Source of the DNA: a virus
Taxonomy: Duplodnaviria > Heunggongvirae > Uroviricota > Caudoviricetes
Reading direction: 5' to 3' (one strand)
Virus record (IMG/VR): IMGVR_UViG_2681813320_000010
Span: 1-5,088 of that record
Length of the DNA: 5,088 nucleotides
This document shows positions 1 through 5,088 of the stretch, piece after piece. Below the pieces are notes generated by a model that was not told where the DNA came from, ran no database searches, and saw only the letters and a program-made list of their open reading frames with translations. Both the position numbers and the translations under genes were made by a program. Every line of letters starts with the position of its first letter. Position 1 is the stretch's first letter.

Positions 1-799
1 TTCCGGCATCCACATCACCAGGCCAGAGAGCGTAGGCCAGTTCGTCATCCAGTGTTTTCCATGTCTGCTTGTATTCGCGATGAATGGCAGCAATGACCAG
101 GCTGATTTTTCCTGTTGAATTTTCAGTGTGCTGTTGATTGACTCTGGCGCGGGCGAGATCAACAACAGACGTGTATTTTCCGGTTTCCTTGCGTTCACCT
201 TCGCGACGTTTTTTCCAGATGCGCATCTCTGCCTGAATTTCGGGCCATTTGGCACCAGGCTTACATTTATGCTTAACCCACCCGATGGCATGCAGCTTAA
301 GCTCCGGATACATGGCGTTAACTTCTGGCATTTTCATCAACGCTTCAACGATATGTCCGTCGAATGTTGCCATGTCTTCCTGCAACAATTCCTGTGCGCT
401 AATAACCATATCAACGGTGATGTTTTCACATGTGTCGAACTTAACCATGACAGCGTTCTGTACTTCAGGGGCCAGCTTGTCAAAAGTGACGTTCATCGGA
501 TCGGATTCAGTCTCAACCGGGACAAAGGAAGCAGACTCCTCATCCCAGCGGTTTTCCTGCATATATTCAGCATCCCAGGAATCGAGGGCAGGGCGGGGTA
601 TACCGGGTTTATCCTCGCAGACAAGAAATTTATAAGCGCAGTCCTGAGCAGCCGGATAATGTTCCAGGAATTGCCAGTGAAATTTTGCGCGGGCGCGACG
701 TTCATCACCGGCTTCAATGGCAGTGGCTACAGCGACGGCACCTTCTTCCTTTATTGCCTGTTCGTCCGGAATGGCGGCGCAAATAAAGACTTTACTCAT
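1..799 (-). CDS. Hypothetical prophage early-region protein, N-terminal 266 codons (3-prime end lies beyond the window start)
   Basis: Minus-strand frame is open from ATG at 799-797 to the window edge (manual translation, begins MSKVFICAAIPDEQAIKEEGAVAVATAIEAGDERRARAKFHWQF). Composition is acidic and protein-like. GAGGT Shine-Dalgarno lies 8 nt upstream. The track ORF 128..859 (+) is its Phe/Cys/His-rich antisense shadow. Function not recognised; position suggests a recombination or early-left module gene, which is positional inference only. Confidence 0.6.
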   Translation of the reverse strand, partial: MSKVFICAAIPDEQAIKEEGAVAVATAIEAGDERRARAKFHWQFLEHYPAAQDCAYKFLVCEDKPGIPRPALDSWDAEYMQENRWDEESASFVPVETESDPMNVTFDKLAPEVQNAVMVKFDTCENITVDMVISAQELLQEDMATFDGHIVEALMKMPEVNAMYPELKLHAIGWVKHKCKPGAKWPEIQAEMRIWKKRREGERKETGKYTSVVDLARARVNQQHTENSTGKISLVIAAIHREYKQTWKTLDDELAYALWPGDVDAG

Positions 800-891
800 T
801 TTGTTTTACCTCATTACAGATTTAAGGGTGAACAAATCCCTGCCATTGCTGGCATATAAGAATGAAACCGGATATTTATTACGGAACTGTT

Positions 892-1083
892 TTAAAGACC
901 TGCCGGGATTTCGTTATTATCCTGGTGAATAACTTTATCGACCGGGTAACAGTTACCGGGAATTTTCTGTTCTGCTGCGGCAGCCATGCATTCTTTCATT
1001 GAGTTGTACATGCCGGTGATTGCATCAAGCGACTCACCAGTATTGAGATATACAGTCAGAATGAGTATGAATAATGTGTTCAT
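892..1083 (-). CDS. Small hypothetical protein (63 aa) with hydrophobic N-terminal segment, candidate small membrane protein
   Basis: ATG at 1083-1081 preceded by GGAGAG Shine-Dalgarno (5-nt spacing); the track ORF 892..1089 starts 2 codons earlier at GTG. Product MNTLFILILTVYLNTGES... has a hydrophobic stretch at the N-terminus. Its start overlaps the stop of the upstream gene in an ATGA junction. Stop TAA at 894-892. Confidence 0.45.
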   Translation of the reverse strand: MNTLFILILTVYLNTGESLDAITGMYNSMKECMAAAAEQKIPGNCYPVDKVIHQDNNEIPAGL

Positions 1084-1268
1084 CGCCACTCTCCGAAAAT
1101 ACCGAGTTTAAGAAGGGCAATTCTGGAGAGTATGGAATTGTCATTCAGCAGGTAGGGTTCATATTTTCTCATATTGATTGCATCCTCGGTGAAATCCCTG
1201 TTACTGAGCAGAACACCAATATTAAAGCACCCGTCAGACGTATTAACGTTTGGTAGTGACGTTTCCAT
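1080..1268 (-). CDS. Small hypothetical protein (62 aa), translationally coupled to the downstream small membrane protein gene
   Basis: ATG at 1268-1266 with GAGGA Shine-Dalgarno 7 nt upstream. The longer track ORF 1080..1373 starts at GTG with no ribosome-binding site and runs through the inverted repeat, so the shorter start is preferred. Stop TGA overlaps the next ATG (ATGA). Confidence 0.4.
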   Translation of the reverse strand: METSLPNVNTSDGCFNIGVLLSNRDFTEDAINMRKYEPYLLNDNSILSRIALLKLGIFGEWR

Positions 1269-1285
1269 TATCGCGTCCTCAACAA

Positions 1286-1433
1286 TGAATTTTGTGATGC
1301 GGTGCCTGGTGCCTCCAGGTGACGTTAACCAGTTAACAATTAACGCCGGATACAGAGAATCCACCCATAACACTGTTTTTGGTTTTAACTGTTCCGCGTG
1401 CGCTCAGCCGCATTCACCACATCACAAAATTCA
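1286..1433. repeat. 19-bp imperfect inverted repeat pair bracketing a 110-bp spacer
   Basis: 1286-1304 TGAATTTTGTGATGCGGTG; 1415-1433 CACCACATCACAAAATTCA, the reverse complement with 1 mismatch (18/19). The spacer 1305-1414 holds a GGTGCCT tandem direct repeat (1301-1314), a CCTGG/CCAGG palindrome and three closely spaced TTAAC motifs (1325-1344). The left arm ends 18 nt upstream of the ATG at 1268. Confidence 0.6.
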
Positions 1434-1827
1434 CTTTAAAAAGGGCGGCAGAGCAGTCACGGAGTAAAACTGATACCGCCAAAAGTCACCAGAAAATTGA
1501 TAACAGAGGGCGTTGCAGCGGAGTTGTCACTTAAGCGTATGGTCAACCTGACAACCCGGTGTCCTCAACGGGGGAAGGAATAACCCCGCCATACTTACCG
1601 CCGCGCCATTTCGCGGAGTGCCACAACCGGAAGCGCACGGTCGAACTAAATTTAACGACACCGTACAGAGAGACCAATTTCGCCGTGCGCTTTCGCGTTA
1701 TGCCCTGACTTTTCAGGGACATATCCTTTCAGTAAACTGTCAGTGCCGGATGTTCACCCGTGTCCGGCGCACGCACTCCACCTGACCCGTGGAGAACTCC
1801 TTAATTACCAACCCTCAGGAGGGTGAA
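1434..1827. other. ORF-poor, GC-richer structured intergenic region between the plus-strand 92-aa gene and the minus-strand small-gene operon
   Basis: No ORF of 60 codons or more in any frame across about 1468-1788. By hand count about 57% GC over 1541-1700, against AT-rich flanking small genes. Hairpins: CCGCG-ccattt-CGCGG (about 1600-1616), CCCTGA-cttt-TCAGGG (1703-1718), GCCGGA-12nt-TCCGGC (about 1744-1767). GTGCGC/GCGCAC recurs four times. Weak candidate plus-strand promoter: -35 TTTTCA at 1710-1715, -10 TAAACT at 1733-1738. Confidence 0.4.
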
Positions 1828-2106
1828 ATGGATAAAAAGCAAATTGAGGCCCTGCAATCTATTATTGAAAAACAAGATGAAGCTATCAGGATTCTTTCAT
1901 ATCGCACTGATATGATACTAAATATGCTTTCTGCATTAACGGCTGCGCTTGGTGGTACAAAAACAAACGTATACCGCGAAGTTGTTATTCAACAGATAGA
2001 TAAATTTGAAAAAACCATACCAGGTATTAATGCTCATCTTGCAGAACAAGAGAAAGACCATGCTCTTATGGCAATTTCTTCAGTAGCTCTCCCGAAAGTT
2101 GAGTAG
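1828..2106 (+). CDS. Hypothetical 92-aa coiled-coil-like protein, transcribed opposite to the surrounding early-left genes
   Basis: ATG at 1828 preceded by strong AGGAGGG Shine-Dalgarno (1817-1823); the track ORF begins upstream at GTG 1789 with no ribosome-binding site. Product MDKKQIEALQSIIEKQDEAIRILSYRTDMILNMLSALTAALGG... is balanced and heptad-like. Stop TAG at 2104-2106. The 3-prime 41 nt overlap the convergent 133-aa gene. Confidence 0.5.
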   Translation: MDKKQIEALQSIIEKQDEAIRILSYRTDMILNMLSALTAALGGTKTNVYREVVIQQIDKFEKTIPGINAHLAEQEKDHALMAISSVALPKVE

Positions 2107-2467
2107 TTTTAATTGTTGTTTTGAAATAATCACTGCTTTCACATTTGAGTGATTTCATGGCAATCCAAATGCGGGCCTCTGTGCCTGCATTTGGTTCCAG
2201 TTGCTGTAGACGTTTTGCGTCTTCCAAAAGTAAGGCGATAATGTGTTTCAGCTTCTCATCATTTGCTTGATTCTTGTTTTCAGGCGAATTCTGTCCGCCG
2301 AATAGGCGCTTCTCTTCATACAGACCTATAAAGGCACGACGCACGTTACCGGATATAGTATCGATGGTTTCCTTTTCTACAGTACTCAGGTCAAGAGTCG
2401 CCAGTTGAGAGCGAACCACATTCGCTGCCATTTCCTGGAATGGCATTGGTAAATCTTTAAATTCCAT
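2066..2467 (-). CDS. Hypothetical early-left protein (133 aa)
   Basis: ATG at 2467-2465 with GAGG Shine-Dalgarno 6 nt upstream, 22 nt after the stop of the upstream 72-aa gene (operon-like). Protein-like composition (MEFKDLPMPFQEMAANVVRSQLATLDLSTVEKETIDTISG...). No family recognised. The last 13 codons overlap the plus-strand gene, so the true 3-prime end is uncertain. Confidence 0.5.
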   Translation of the reverse strand: MEFKDLPMPFQEMAANVVRSQLATLDLSTVEKETIDTISGNVRRAFIGLYEEKRLFGGQNSPENKNQANDEKLKHIIALLLEDAKRLQQLEPNAGTEARIWIAMKSLKCESSDYFKTTIKTTQLSGELLKKLP

Positions 2468-2489
2468 TATTAGCCTCGTTGGTTAGCTA

Positions 2490-2708
2490 TTAACGTGGGT
2501 ATGTAACCATTCTGGCAATGCTTAATGCCGCTGCTTTTTCCAGCCTGGTGATATCCTGCTCCAGAGCGGACAGATTTTCAGCCTGCTTAGTCCTGGCTTC
2601 ATTGGCCCATTTCAGATCCTGCGCTGCATTAATTTTCTGGCGCATCCACTCATAAAGTTCATCATCGGTATAGTCTGGCGCGATGATGACGGGTTCTCGT
2701 TTCTGCAT
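2490..2708 (-). CDS. Hypothetical small early-left protein (72 aa), predicted helical/coiled-coil
   Basis: ATG at 2708-2706 with GAGGAA Shine-Dalgarno 6 nt upstream; stop TAA at 2492-2490. Product MQKREPVIIAPDYTDDELYEWMRQKINAAQDLKWANEARTKQAENLSALEQDITRLEKAAALSIARMVTYPR is charged and helix-prone. No family recognised. Confidence 0.5.
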   Translation of the reverse strand: MQKREPVIIAPDYTDDELYEWMRQKINAAQDLKWANEARTKQAENLSALEQDITRLEKAAALSIARMVTYPR

Positions 2709-2737
2709 ACTGATTCCTCGCGGTGCTGTTTCGCTTA

Positions 2738-2866
2738 TCAGCCGTTAGATTTTGCCGAACTGGAAAGCGCCTGTTTAAATTCGTTGAAGCTGAGAGCTTC
2801 TTCGCCTTCGGCAAGACCTTCGAAGTATTCTTCGTAAGCCTTTTCCATGATTGTGTCGAAATCCAT
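2738..2866 (-). CDS. Small acidic hypothetical protein (42 aa), absent from the ORF track because it is short
   Basis: Manual translation from ATG 2866-2864 to TGA 2740-2738: MDFDTIMEKAYEEYFEGLAEGEEALSFNEFKQALSSSAKSNG. AGGTGA Shine-Dalgarno-like sequence upstream; ATG lies 1 nt after the stop of the upstream 51-aa ORF. The overlapping track ORFs 2662..2871 (-) and 2723..2920 (+) have basic or antisense-like low-complexity products and are considered shadows. Resembles the small Rac-prophage ydaF/ydaG-type genes by size and position, from memory only. Confidence 0.4.
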   Translation of the reverse strand: MDFDTIMEKAYEEYFEGLAEGEEALSFNEFKQALSSSAKSNG

Positions 2867-2867
2867 A

Positions 2868-3023
2868 TCACTCACCTGAGTTTCTTTCCAGCCAGCGACG
2901 GGCACCATTTTCGGTTTTAAACGTTTTGCTTTTGGTATACGTCATCGCGGTGAACGTACCGTCCTGGTTGGGGAACACGCCACATACCAGAGATTCGCTG
3001 TTGCCAAGATCGATAGTATCCAT
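2868..3023 (-). CDS. Small hypothetical protein (51 aa); first gene after the candidate OL/pL region (alternative upstream start at 3104 would give 78 aa)
   Basis: ATG at 3023-3021 with GAGGT Shine-Dalgarno 4 nt upstream: MDTIDLGNSESLVCGVFPNQDGTFTAMTYTKSKTFKTENGARRWLERNSGE; stop TGA 2870-2868. The track ORF extends to ATG 3104 with an N-rich hydrophobic extension of doubtful coding character. Start choice is unresolved. Confidence 0.45.
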   Translation of the reverse strand: MDTIDLGNSESLVCGVFPNQDGTFTAMTYTKSKTFKTENGARRWLERNSGE

Positions 3024-3199
3024 GCTGACCTCATTTCCCCTTAACGCCGGGGTAGCGGAACAAAAACCTGCTGCATAGTTATTAAAGTTGAACCCTGCCG
3101 TCATGTTCTTACGCCTCGGGCTGGCTACTTAACCCCTGACCACTGCCGGGTAACTCGAAGTATTGCCTGGCGTTCTGTGGGGCGGGGTGGGTTGATGAA

Positions 3200-3250
3200 T
3201 GAACAATACCACTACTATTTAATTATGTAAATAGCAGTGCTATTATCGTG
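3200..3250 (-). promoter_or_regulatory. Candidate OL/pL-like operator-promoter region for the early-left operon
   Basis: Overlapping palindromes: CTATTTA-ATTATG-TAAATAG (3215-3234) and AAATAG-CAGTG-CTATTA (3229-3245), plus a degenerate copy CAATAC-CACTA-CTATTT (3204-3220); same half-site family as the OR region. Candidate minus-strand promoter: -35 TTTACA (3229-3224), 17-nt spacer, -10 TATTGT (3206-3201). Lies between the terminator of the repressor operon and the first early-left gene. Confidence 0.4.
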
Positions 3251-3252
3251 GC

Positions 3253-3278
3253 AAGAAAAAAACCACCCGAAGGTGGTT
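3253..3278 (-). terminator. Rho-independent terminator of the repressor-antitoxin-toxin operon
   Basis: On the minus strand: 7-bp stem AACCACC/GGTGGTT with a UUCG tetraloop (plus 3261-3278), followed by a U-run (plus 3256-3260 AAAAA; transcript GGUGGUUUUUUUCUU). Begins 15 nt downstream of the toxin stop codon (3295-3293). Confidence 0.7.
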
Positions 3279-3292
3279 GTTGACAGGAAGGA

Positions 3293-3583
3293 TTAACAGG
3301 TTTTGTTTGGATACTGTCTTCGTGAGTGAACTACATTTACGATCTCGATGTTAGATGCTGTTACTCGGTAAAGTATTATGTAGTTAGGATGAGTCACTAT
3401 CTCACGAAGACTTGGAACTCTTTCGCTCGGTGGGTACAGATAAGGGTGTTCAGTAAGTGACAAAACTGATGTTTCAATGCGTATTTTTAGTCTACGTGCA
3501 GCGGGAGGGTTTTCCTTAGCAATATAGGCTACGATCTGACGTAAATCATCACGTGCAGAAGGTAGCCATAAAATGGGCAGCAT
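3293..3583 (-). CDS. parE: Type II toxin, ParE/RelE superfamily (ParE-like), 96 aa
   Basis: Product MLPILWLPSARDDLRQIVAYIAKENPPAARRLKIRIETSVLSLTEHPYLYPPSERVPSLREIVTHPNYIILYRVTASNIEIVNVVHSRRQYP shows the ParE pattern: W-x-x-x-A-x-x-DL-x-x-I-x-x-YIA, an R-x-L/I-E region, R-E/L-V/I then YRV then I-x-I-x-x-V-x-H, and a terminal RQ-x-P. ATG overlaps the upstream antitoxin stop by 1 nt (TAATG). Family assignment is from memory of ParE sequences; parE is a family-level symbol only. Confidence 0.8.
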   Translation of the reverse strand: MLPILWLPSARDDLRQIVAYIAKENPPAARRLKIRIETSVLSLTEHPYLYPPSERVPSLREIVTHPNYIILYRVTASNIEIVNVVHSRRQYPNKTC

Positions 3584-3774
3584 TACTCACTCCTGTTCGT
3601 TGCAGCTAATTGAGCAATAAGGTTTTCCATTTCAGCCATTACTTCGTCATGTGGAATTGCAGGACGGGGATCTGAGAGGCTTGCTGCCACTTTGGTTCGC
3701 AACCATTCGTTATAGCTGTTTTCTTGTTCGACTGTTTCAAATTCAGAAATTATCGGGGAAAGGGCTGTACTCAT
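3583..3774 (-). CDS. paaA: Small antitoxin (63 aa) paired with the ParE-like toxin; resembles PaaA-type antitoxins of three-component ParE systems
   Basis: ATG at 3774-3772 with GGAGG Shine-Dalgarno 7 nt upstream, 17 nt after the repressor stop; stop overlaps the toxin start. Product MSTALSPIISEFETVEQENSYNEWLRTKVAASLSDPRPAIPHDEVMAEMENLIAQLAATNRSE is small, acidic and likely disordered, typical of type II antitoxins. The PaaA-like call rests on gene order and recollection, not a search; paaA is a family-level symbol only. Confidence 0.7.
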   Translation of the reverse strand: MSTALSPIISEFETVEQENSYNEWLRTKVAASLSDPRPAIPHDEVMAEMENLIAQLAATNRSE

Positions 3775-3791
3775 GTTTTTACCTCCTCAGA

Positions 3792-4292
3792 TTAGGCGCG
3801 ACGACCCTTTTGCGCAGCTAGCCATCGCGCAACGATTTCTTCAATTGATTCTTTTTTCTCCTTCATTTCCTTAAGCATTTTCTCTTTATCTTCTTTGGGG
3901 AAAGCCCTGAACGTCTGGAGCAAATCCCGCTCCATGGGGTCTATATTAAACGGAAGTTCGTTTTCCGATTGTTCCATATCTGCAGATATAGTGACAACAT
4001 TGTCCTCCCCAGATTCTTGGGGATACATCCTTACAATTTGTAACAACTCGGCCATATCTGGTCTGATTGACTCGGGAGGAACTTGCAGCAACCCTGCGAA
4101 CTTGATAACAGCCTCAAGATTTAAAGGTGTCTGACCATTTAGATAATGGCTTACAGCTCCCTGTGTCGAAAATCCCAGAATTTCTGCCGCACGCTCTTGG
4201 GTTAACCCTAGTTGATTTTTTTTCGCCGTCCAGATTTCTTTCAGTCTCTGGGCGGCTTGCAGGTCGATCTCTGACAGGGATTTTCTTTTCAT
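3792..4292 (-). CDS. paaR: HTH (XRE/Cro-CI family) transcriptional repressor, 166 aa; CI analogue and first gene of the repressor-antitoxin-toxin operon
   Basis: N-terminal helix-turn-helix signature LTQERAAEILGFSTQGAVSHYLNGQTP. C-terminal region is Lys/Glu-rich with no recognisable LexA/S24-type autocleavage motif. Divergent from the Cro-like gene across an operator-rich 107-bp region. AAGG ribosome-binding site almost abuts the ATG, so the leader is poor. paaR is assigned by operon architecture, moderately confident. Confidence 0.8.
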   Translation of the reverse strand: MKRKSLSEIDLQAAQRLKEIWTAKKNQLGLTQERAAEILGFSTQGAVSHYLNGQTPLNLEAVIKFAGLLQVPPESIRPDMAELLQIVRMYPQESGEDNVVTISADMEQSENELPFNIDPMERDLLQTFRAFPKEDKEKMLKEMKEKKESIEEIVARWLAAQKGRRA

Positions 4293-4399
4293 ACCTTCAA
4301 TTCTAATAAGATTATTAATCTCTTTGAAATAGTGATGCTATTTACTTTTAAAAATAACAATGCTATTAATGATCGTGATGACATCACATGAGGTGAACA
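4293..4399. promoter_or_regulatory. Candidate OR-like divergent operator-promoter region between repressor and Cro-like gene
   Basis: Two 17-bp palindromic sites spaced 25 bp centre to centre: AAATAG-TGATG-CTATTT (4327-4343) and AAATAA-CAATG-CTATTA (4352-4368). A separate perfect palindrome GTGATG-a-CATCAC (4375-4387) sits just before the GAGGTG Shine-Dalgarno of the Cro-like gene. Candidate rightward promoter: -35 TTTACT (4341-4346), -10 TATTAA (4364-4369), overlapping the operators. Confidence 0.55.
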
Positions 4400-4675
4400 A
4401 TGAATCTTGGAGAATATTTGCATCATTCCGGTATAACTCAGAAGCATTTTGCTGAAATTGTTGGGGTAACCCAAGGGATGGTAAGCCATGTCATTACCGG
4501 ACGGGCGAAACTTACGGGGAAAAAAATTTTACGCTGGTGCGAAGCAACAGGCTGGATAGTAACTCCGCACGAGATTGATGGCAGTACTTATCCCAACCCA
4601 ACCGACGGCTTACCTGTCGAGTATCAGGCTAACACACAACCAGAGGCGGGGGTGATTCATGAAAATCAAGCATGA
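4400..4675 (+). CDS. ydaS: Cro-like HTH DNA-binding protein, YdaS-type (91 aa)
   Basis: ATG at 4400 with GAGGTG Shine-Dalgarno 4 nt upstream. HTH signature ITQKHFAEIVGVTQGMVSHVITG. Divergent from the repressor and followed by an overlapping YdaT-like gene, the arrangement of the Rac-type ydaS-ydaT pair. Assignment from motif and synteny. Confidence 0.75.
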   Translation: MNLGEYLHHSGITQKHFAEIVGVTQGMVSHVITGRAKLTGKKILRWCEATGWIVTPHEIDGSTYPNPTDGLPVEYQANTQPEAGVIHENQA

Positions 4676-5084
4676 ACACATCCGCATGGCAATGAATGCC
4701 TGGGCGCATCCGGACGGCGAAAAAGTACCGGCTGCGAAAATTACCAAAGCGTATTTCGAGCTGGGAATGACGTTCCCGGAACTGTATGACGACAGCCATC
4801 CGGAAGCCCTGGCCCGTAATACCCAGAAAATTTTCCGTTGGCTGGATAAAGACACCCCTGATGCTGTTGAAAAAATGCAGGCTCTGTTACCGGCGATCGA
4901 AAAGGCGATGCCGCCTTTGCTGGTGGCCCGTATGCGCAGCCACAGTTCTGAATATTACCGTGAGATCGTCGAACGGAGGGATCGGCTGGTGAAGGATGTC
5001 GATGATTTTGTTGCGTCAGCGGTTGTTTTGTATGACCAGATGAATCGCGGCGGCCCGGCAGGGAATGCTGTGGTGATGCACTAA
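4659..5084 (+). CDS. ydaT: YdaT-like protein (141 aa), CII analogue of Rac-type immunity regions
   Basis: Begins MKIKHEHI, which I recall as the N-terminus of Rac-prophage YdaT. Overlaps the 3-prime end of the Cro-like gene by 17 nt in another frame. G-rich ribosome-binding site (GGGGGTG) upstream. Stop TAA 5082-5084. Assignment from recollection and synteny. Confidence 0.75.
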   Translation: MKIKHEHIRMAMNAWAHPDGEKVPAAKITKAYFELGMTFPELYDDSHPEALARNTQKIFRWLDKDTPDAVEKMQALLPAIEKAMPPLLVARMRSHSSEYYREIVERRDRLVKDVDDFVASAVVLYDQMNRGGPAGNAVVMH

Positions 5085-5088
5085 AAGC

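Follow-up and report, generated by a model that had tools for sequence, protein, structure and literature searches.

An inverted repeat in the DicF-dicB spacer of a Qin-like prophage closes a conserved RNA domain and is a probable site of RNase III cleavage

Which function does a long inverted repeat serve in the spacer between a small RNA and a small gene of a prophage operon? The question arises at positions 1286-1433 of a 5,088-nucleotide stretch of viral DNA (IMG/VR record IMGVR_UViG_2681813320_000010, positions 1 to 5,088; hereafter the window), where a first-pass annotation had noted two nearly complementary arms around a repeat-rich segment and had considered an RNase III or translational-control stem alongside several DNA-level elements. 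The window comes from an E. coli prophage of the Qin-like lambdoid type, of which it spans the immunity and early-left region, and its dicBF operon is read on the minus strand. First on that strand comes DicF, a 53-nt sRNA at 1495-1443 (Rfam RF00039, K-12 b1574) with a Rho-independent terminator hairpin whose U-tract lies at 1442-1438. The RF00039 match itself spans 1494..1443 (75.8 bits against a gathering score of 48), and the K-12 annotation b1574, which begins 1 nt ahead of it, sets the DicF 5' end at 1495. The repeat element follows at 1435-1284, and then dicB (1080-1280 including the Shine-Dalgarno sequence GAGGA at 1280-1276; Pfam DicB PF05358, E 1.3e-32), with 62 codons running from the AUG at 1268 to 1080; the start codon that the first-pass annotation had placed at 1268 thus exists and is that of dicB. 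With DicF upstream and dicB downstream, the repeat takes up the spacer that separates the DicF terminator from dicB. Pfam matches on the same strand as dicB further include DUF1482, a YdfA-like DUF1391 protein and a ParE/PaaA2 pair. The operon is the same as in K-12 Qin, and only a few positions distinguish the orthologous K-12 spacer (L005:443-594) from that of the window; the ParE/PaaA2 pair and different upstream genes nevertheless mark the window as a different prophage copy. A 901-nt query (window 1000-1900) was matched in 4,719 of 5,426 complete E. coli genomes, and dicBF loci of E. coli genomes show 93-99% identity to this region.

The two arms, 1286-1304 (TGAATTTTGTGATGCGGTG) and 1415-1433 (CACCACATCACAAAATTCA), were recovered by a repeat search as a 19-nt pair with 18/19 complementary positions (95%) at a spacing of 110 nt. 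This is the sole 19-nt inverted repeat with at most one mismatch and a span of up to 300 nt in the whole window, and a comparable one appeared in 1 of 300 dinucleotide-preserving shuffles of the window, bearing out the view that so near-perfect a repeat lies beyond chance. The GGTGCCT tandem (at 1301 and 1308) and the clustered TTAAC/GTTAA motifs (1324-1345) described for the interior are likewise both present. Two details did not hold. The gap between arm and start codon, given as 18 nt, is 17 nt when counted from the arm end at 1286 to the dicB AUG at 1268, and 15 nt from the end of the RNA helix described below. The GTGATG/CATCAC hexamers had been taken to link the arms to a palindrome at 4375-4387; each occurs five times in the window, and the link is dismissed as coincidental because in homologous elements the stem is built from arms of entirely different sequence.

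Folding of the leftward transcript, as had been proposed, pairs the minus-strand arms as a long-range stem. The 161-nt minus-strand fold reaches a dG of -63.7 kcal/mol (z = -6.4), and none of 200 shuffles was as stable. In this RNA the single DNA mismatch becomes a G.U pair and the helix, here called P1, grows to 21 uninterrupted pairs, 1435-1415 with 1304-1284; the plus-strand RNA retains an A.C mismatch and is 11 kcal/mol weaker. P1 closes a multiloop of four hairpins, all on the minus strand. Its 5' arm (AGUGAAUUUUGUGAUGUGGUG, 1415-1435, which includes 1415-1433) is followed by a conserved junction AAU (1414-1412) and the P2 hairpin (GCGGCUGAGCGCACGC, 1396-1411). P3 (1348-1395) is a variable arm with a conserved base and an apex that is hypervariable in length and sequence. 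P4 (GGCGUUAAUU GUUAACU GGUUAACGUC, 1321-1347) is the origin of the three TTAAC motifs, and P5 (CCUGG AGGCA CCAGG, 1305-1319) is the most conserved motif of the family; the plus-strand GGTGCCT tandem corresponds to P5 together with the subsequent CACC, the first bases of the P1 3' arm (CACCGCAUCACAAAAUUCAUU, 1284-1304, which includes 1286-1304). The "repeat-rich" 110-nt interior is accordingly not made of repeats as such but of hairpins P2-P5 of a conserved RNA fold. An intrinsic terminator or attenuator was also considered and rejected, as the sequence after the 3' arm, GUUGAGGACGCG, has no U-run. A simple consensus scan of 1200-1850 returned no terminator-like sites, within limits on loop (3-8 nt) and stem length that make it miss the DicF terminator as well, and a simple consensus scan of the same region, with limited power to exclude, returned no minus-strand promoter-like site for the element or dicB.

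Conservation of the fold was analyzed in homologues gathered from phage records, viral contigs and species-representative genomes, of which 54 distinct long-stem copies were aligned. Related elements show the compensatory changes that the first-pass annotation had asked about: 10 of the 21 P1 pairs are changed on both sides. P1 is 96.4% paired across these homologues, in counts that ignore phylogeny and include many close relatives. In this alignment (A2), MAFFT misplaced a bulged A in five kilR-like rows, which makes the P1 pair counts conservative. For the whole five-helix structure, pairing amounts to 94.2%, compared with 34-41% after a shift of the 3' partners by 1-3 columns, and the observed pairing or covariation was reached in 0 of 500 shuffles. 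All five helices are supported in the long-stem alignment, with 99.3% of cells paired in P2 and 98.3% in P4, where 5 of 10 pairs carry two-sided changes. A helix of 17-22 bp persists with at least five unrelated arm sequences, for instance ACAGACCUUGCAAUGCAGUG/CACUGCAUUGCAAGGUCUGU and AAGCAGGUUUUAAGGUGUGGUG/CACCACACCUUAAAGCCUGCUU, and these independent arm types make the conclusion of an RNA helix robust despite counts that are blind to kinship. The strand under selection can be read from the non-Watson-Crick cells of P1, counted with a bulge-aware walk along the helix: 93 are G.U and 4 are A.C in the 54 sequences (37 and 4 in the 24 distinct arm variants). Since a DNA palindrome decaying by transitions would give G.U and A.C equally, selection acts on the minus-strand RNA and not on the DNA. 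Orientation relative to the flanking genes is constant in all 54 aligned copies. The arm pair is a real, strongly conserved and functional feature, and the practical result is one of annotation: in a prophage operon that is very common in E. coli, the 148-bp "repeat-rich" spacer specifies a folded RNA.

The fold has relatives outside dicBF operons. The Rfam model STnc100 (RF02076) matches the window with 38.4 bits (E 6.4e-6), under its gathering score of 47, and the outer stem of its consensus falls on the two arms; scores of 33-44 bits, likewise sub-threshold, were obtained for the copies of K-12 Qin, Rac, Tritos and Stx phages. An assignment on the Rfam score alone was dropped for that reason, and an independent model (R1) was built instead from 58 diverse stand-alone short-stem copies, with all dicB- and kil-type sequences excluded. 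In the R1 training alignment, 17 of 25 consensus pairs are compensatory; the helix equivalent to P2 covaries in stand-alone copies, and three base pairs of P3 covary in the wider family (columns 34-36 with 89-91). R1 matches the window at full length (model positions 1-120 of 120) at 1293-1426 on the minus strand, with 71.3 bits and E 3.7e-17. The element belongs to the STnc100/PasD structural family, which is prophage-borne and found across Enterobacterales, and shares with it the five-helix architecture and the motifs GGUGAAU, UGNGCG in the P2 loop and CACCNGGAGGCACCNGGCACC. Stand-alone copies have a closing stem of 5-10 bp, and about half of them have a terminator within 130 nt, whereas the window copy combines a 21-bp stem with a score below the Rfam threshold and, lacking the terminator of its own that would define a stand-alone sRNA, is followed by the dicB start 15 nt after P1. 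Stand-alone copies are expressed as discrete RNAs in EHEC, with 11 annotated and expressed STnc100 copies in E. coli EDL933, and for PasD, RIL-seq (Pas preprint) is reported to show Hfq association and base pairing in trans. The terms dicF, dicB, kil and kilR are absent from the Pas preprint.

That RNase III cuts the dicBF transcript is essentially known already from the orthologous K-12 locus: according to two papers that both cite Faubladier 1990 (PMC5069750, PMC9438474), RNase III processing of full-length dicBF mRNA gives rise to a 72-nt DicF. Taking this K-12 size as those papers cite it, our own coordinate arithmetic places the 3' end of the 72-nt form at about 1424 (1495 - 71), inside the 5' arm of the window's helix, and an error of a few nucleotides in the cited size would still leave the end within that arm. 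The putative cut (1423..1424, minus strand) would leave 12 bp of P1 on the basal side and 9 bp on the inner side. P1 has the dimensions of an RNase III substrate, an intramolecular helix of ~20-22 bp on the transcribed strand, with 21 pairs on the minus strand. RNase III geometry, with a 2-nt 3' overhang assumed, would put the partner cut at 1293..1294 in the 3' arm. In vivo, the two positions between staggered cuts are paired and include at least one G-C pair (PMC6212723), and the pairs between the two predicted cuts, G1425-C1294 and U1424-A1295, agree with this rule. The partner cut would start the dicB mRNA 25 nt before its AUG and release a core of ~130 nt (1423-1294) with a 9-bp P1. The suggestion of an RNase III stem ahead of the start codon at 1268 is thus supported by covariation, by the G.U strand bias and by the 72-nt end, as given in the citing papers, inside the 5' arm; on the same reading of those papers, the closing stem of the spacer RNA appears to be the RNase III site behind the long-reported 72-nt DicF. 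Within the dicBF literature searched, where Faubladier 1990 is represented through the papers citing it, no description of the helix or of the enclosed fold was found.

A second reported end served as a cross-check of the end-mapping method. A 2023 preprint describes RNase III acting upstream of DicF and yielding a 190-nt species, whose RNase III-generated 5' end maps to 1632, inside the 3' strand of a separate hairpin of ~22 bp. This hairpin (1622-1700, minus strand) contains small interruptions (dG -34.4, z = -2.7), and together with P1 it leaves DicF flanked by two RNase III stems. Published coverage data bear on the fate of the spacer. A table for an rnc mutant (mBio 2017) lists a coverage peak at K-12 1649470, inside the element, with 26 reads compared with 0 in the wild type, in data that are low-count and unstranded and have 400-bp spacing between called sites; the peak sits 7 nt to the inside of the arm and not within the arm, and it lends weak support to RNase III action on the element. 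By this unstranded 26-read peak, the spacer is more abundant without RNase III, which argues against a stable excised core in exponential-phase LB, and library size selection may explain the difference. The 2023 preprint, on the same operon, reported only the 53-nt and 190-nt species and detected no transcripts through to dicB.

Our reading, to which we assign a probability of roughly 80%, is that P1 closes a conserved RNA domain in the DicF-dicB spacer of the leftward transcript and that RNase III cuts P1 mid-stem. The arms are the two strands of P1, which closes a five-helix domain of ~150 nt on the minus-strand early transcript of a Qin-like lambdoid prophage. Where 6-10 bp are usual, the closing helix has here been lengthened to 21 bp, a double-stranded RNA of about two turns. 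P1 would form once polymerase reads past the DicF terminator, and RNase III would cut it near its middle, leaving the 72-nt DicF form upstream. A cut in the second strand would detach the dicB mRNA with a leader of ~25 nt and might release the ~130-nt core with its 9-bp stem; the fate of this core and any effect on dicB expression follow as predictions of the model.

The stem could act mainly on dicB translation. On this account the outer 3' arm and the leader alternate between two pairings, and formation or cleavage of P1 sets the output of toxic DicB; we consider it unlikely. One pairing would extend P1 by joining the DicF terminator U-tract to the dicB Shine-Dalgarno sequence, and the other would be a local hairpin with the AUG in its stem. 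Past a 1-nt bulge, dicB-type copies can indeed form 7-9 more weak pairs (UUUUUAA with UUGAGGA), but this extension is built solely from A-U and G.U pairs, and kilR-type and other long-stem types lack it. The computed unpaired probability of the Shine-Dalgarno sequence is 0.25 in the read-through RNA and 0.80 in an RNA starting at 1293; the AUG, however, is predicted to become paired in the processed RNA, which leaves the direction of the effect ambiguous. Regulation would suit the genes concerned, as the identifiable ones after long-stem copies are all small and several are toxic or membrane-associated (DicB, KilR, 36-aa hydrophobic peptides). A local hairpin is available on the minus strand, where the freed 3' arm sequence CAUUGUUG (1291-1284) can pair with CGAUAAUG (1273-1266), placing the dicB Shine-Dalgarno sequence in the loop and the AUG in the stem, in competition with the outer P1 pairs.

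Somewhat less probable again is that the long P1 serves as a folding clamp, insulating the core from flanking mRNA and ribosomes, so that the core is functional in cis or when bound by a factor and the RNase III cut is a side effect. Long stems are confined to domains embedded ahead of an ORF, while stand-alone copies suffice with 5-10 bp, and conservation is higher in the core loops (AAU junction, P2 loop, UUGUUAACUGG, AGGCA) than in the arms, both as insulation would lead one to expect; the copies of P7 and D6 upstream of tciA, with a P1 of just 8 bp, were also weighed in its favor. Against this, stem length clusters at 17-22 bp across unrelated arms, the size that RNase III accommodates (~22 bp), whereas a clamp needs no ceiling, and an RNase III-dependent end is reported, by way of citing papers, within the stem. 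Insulation and RNase III cleavage of P1 are compatible rather than exclusive.

A role of the DNA itself, as paired looping operators, a MITE or a small invertible segment, could appeal to the near-perfect 19-bp inverted repeat around 110 bp and to the recurrence of the module upstream of dicB, kilR, tciA and other ORFs, which superficially resembles mobility, but it is scarcely credible in view of a covarying RNA fold in the interior and one orientation in all 54 aligned copies. Each version of it failed on its own grounds as well. Operator half-sites are not conserved, given the unrelated arms of homologues and the 93-to-4 ratio of G.U to A.C; the arms covary rather than being conserved as in a MITE, and the ten window ORFs scanned against Pfam include no recombinase or transposase. 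No inverted variant was present among the best full-length matches in the 5,426 complete E. coli genomes. Searching them with the interior reverse-complemented found 157 "full-length" places, of which the top-ranked are just 77.7% identical, and the single example inspected (ML35) has the normal orientation, its match being explained by hairpin self-complementarity.

RNase III cleavage within a long helix has precedents. Phage T7 R sites and the lambda N leader and sib are RNase III helices of ~20 bp that lie between early phage cistrons; when cut, they separate messages and alter the stability or translation of the genes next to them. These sites are simple hairpins, often with an internal loop, whereas the helix in the window is the closing stem of a conserved multi-helix domain. 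In rRNA operons, sequences flanking 16S and 23S rRNA pair over long range into stalks in the polycistronic precursor, and RNase III cuts both strands and frees the enclosed RNA. The window's helix likewise spans a long range around a structured RNA, but the enclosed RNA is here ~130 nt and its release a prediction. Known rRNA RNase III sites are also listed in the mBio 2017 rnc data. For K-12 dicBF, the RNase III end reported for the 72-nt DicF lies, in window coordinates, within the 5' arm of the helix. The nearest parallel in layout is the KilS-kilR region of Rac, built like dicBF: a terminator-ended sRNA (KilS, b4833) is followed by the element with a 22-bp P1, and kilR starts ~20-30 nt further on. 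The same module, just after KilS and its DicF-like terminator and likewise ~20-30 nt ahead of kilR, is found in Stx phages. KilR inhibits cell division as DicB does, and the two proteins are unrelated. P1 of the Rac kilR type has one bulged A, 1 nt from the position equivalent to the predicted cut, and a weak rnc-mutant coverage peak at 1418510 (low-count, unstranded) lies near the Rac copy. The literature search returned nothing on the structure of the kilR leader.

Across the family, stem length tracks context. Among 247 unique family copies, those with a P1 of at least 17 bp have a Shine-Dalgarno sequence and an ORF within 50 nt in 56 of 58 cases and a terminator in none of the 58; with a P1 of 5-10 bp, a terminator comes next in 86 of 177 and an ORF in 10 of 177. 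This pattern is possibly new and a modestly interesting lead. The commonest stand-alone stem is 8-9 bp, and the predicted cut in the window copy would leave 9 bp, an agreement which suggests that RNase III may process embedded copies to an RNA of the stand-alone type. We tentatively raise the broader possibility, falling somewhat short of an even chance, that dicBF, Rac kil and several lambdoid early-left operons encode a third product, an STnc100/PasD-like RNA of ~130 nt obtained by RNase III excision. Such an RNA would be excised from an mRNA leader without a promoter or terminator of its own, the 17-22 bp helix acting as a processing stalk, so that a single conserved fold would be made in two ways; its release would go hand in hand with the expression of small toxic genes aimed at the host (dicB, kilR, short hydrophobic peptides). 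A tie to cell-division inhibitors as a rule was discarded, as long-stem copies also precede unrelated ORFs of 36, 67, 94 and ~128 aa.

The element joins the literatures on DicF/DicB, KilS/KilR and STnc100/PasD, among which the literature searched held no link. If the core proves to be a stable RNA, studies of DicF and KilS in which "the spacer" was deleted or overexpressed would need re-reading, and a very frequently annotated enterobacterial sRNA family would gain a testable biogenesis route and a connection to prophage control of host cell division.

Several family copies are arranged in other ways. Short-stem copies form tandem arrays of 2-4 units (L286, L297, L306, L257, L241, L109, L021) with gaps down to ~20 nt; some of these arrays lie on Pantoea plasmids, and some units have no terminator between them. 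Other copies abut tRNA genes (L305:3738-4745, L321:4789-4900 and L006/L007, which are P7 and D6), either with a tRNA that starts no more than ~10 nt past the P1 3' arm or with tRNA genes on one side of the element and tciA on the other, which hints at co-processing with tRNAs. At L011, L013, L026, L115 and L210 the order is reversed: an element with a 9-bp P1 precedes a KilS/DicF-like sequence and terminator within ~10 nt, indicating that the fold and the DicF/KilS-type module recombine in both orders. Two phage records, MT713136.1 (Aeromonas phage AP1) and PP818812.1 (an Actinobacillus phage), carry an element 87-98% identical to that of E. coli, which one would not expect of such hosts; E. 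coli prophage DNA may have entered the records.

Within the window, a 97-codon ORF with a GTG start (1080-1373, minus strand) runs in frame through the RNA element into dicB and probably does not constitute a gene of its own. It agrees with the "in-phase internal start" named in the title of Cam et al. 1988. The ~300 nt upstream of DicF on the minus strand (1496-1790) contain no convincing ORF. The nearest minus-strand ORF upstream of DicF (2467-2066, 133 aa) has no Pfam match, and a plus-strand 92-aa ORF (1828-2106), also without Pfam match, runs opposite to the leftward operon that encloses it; the arrangement as a whole is unlike that of K-12 ydfABC. The ParE-family toxin (3583-3293) and PaaA2-type antitoxin (3774-3583) are encoded on the minus strand between the repressor gene and the early-left genes. 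Imperfect palindromes resembling AATAGCAGTGCTATT lie at 3205-3244, left of the ParE/PaaA2 pair, and at 4328-4367, and the perfect 13-bp palindrome GTGATGACATCAC at 4375-4387; the latter two fall between a minus-strand 166-aa ORF (4292-3792) and a divergent 91-aa ORF (4400-4675). From where they lie, the three palindromes are candidates for left and right operator sets; they have nothing to do with the RNA stem. At 3257-3275, AAAAAACCACCCGAAGGTGG forms a small G+C-rich hairpin with A/T runs on either side, which resembles a bidirectional terminator separating the leftward operon from the toxin-antitoxin pair.
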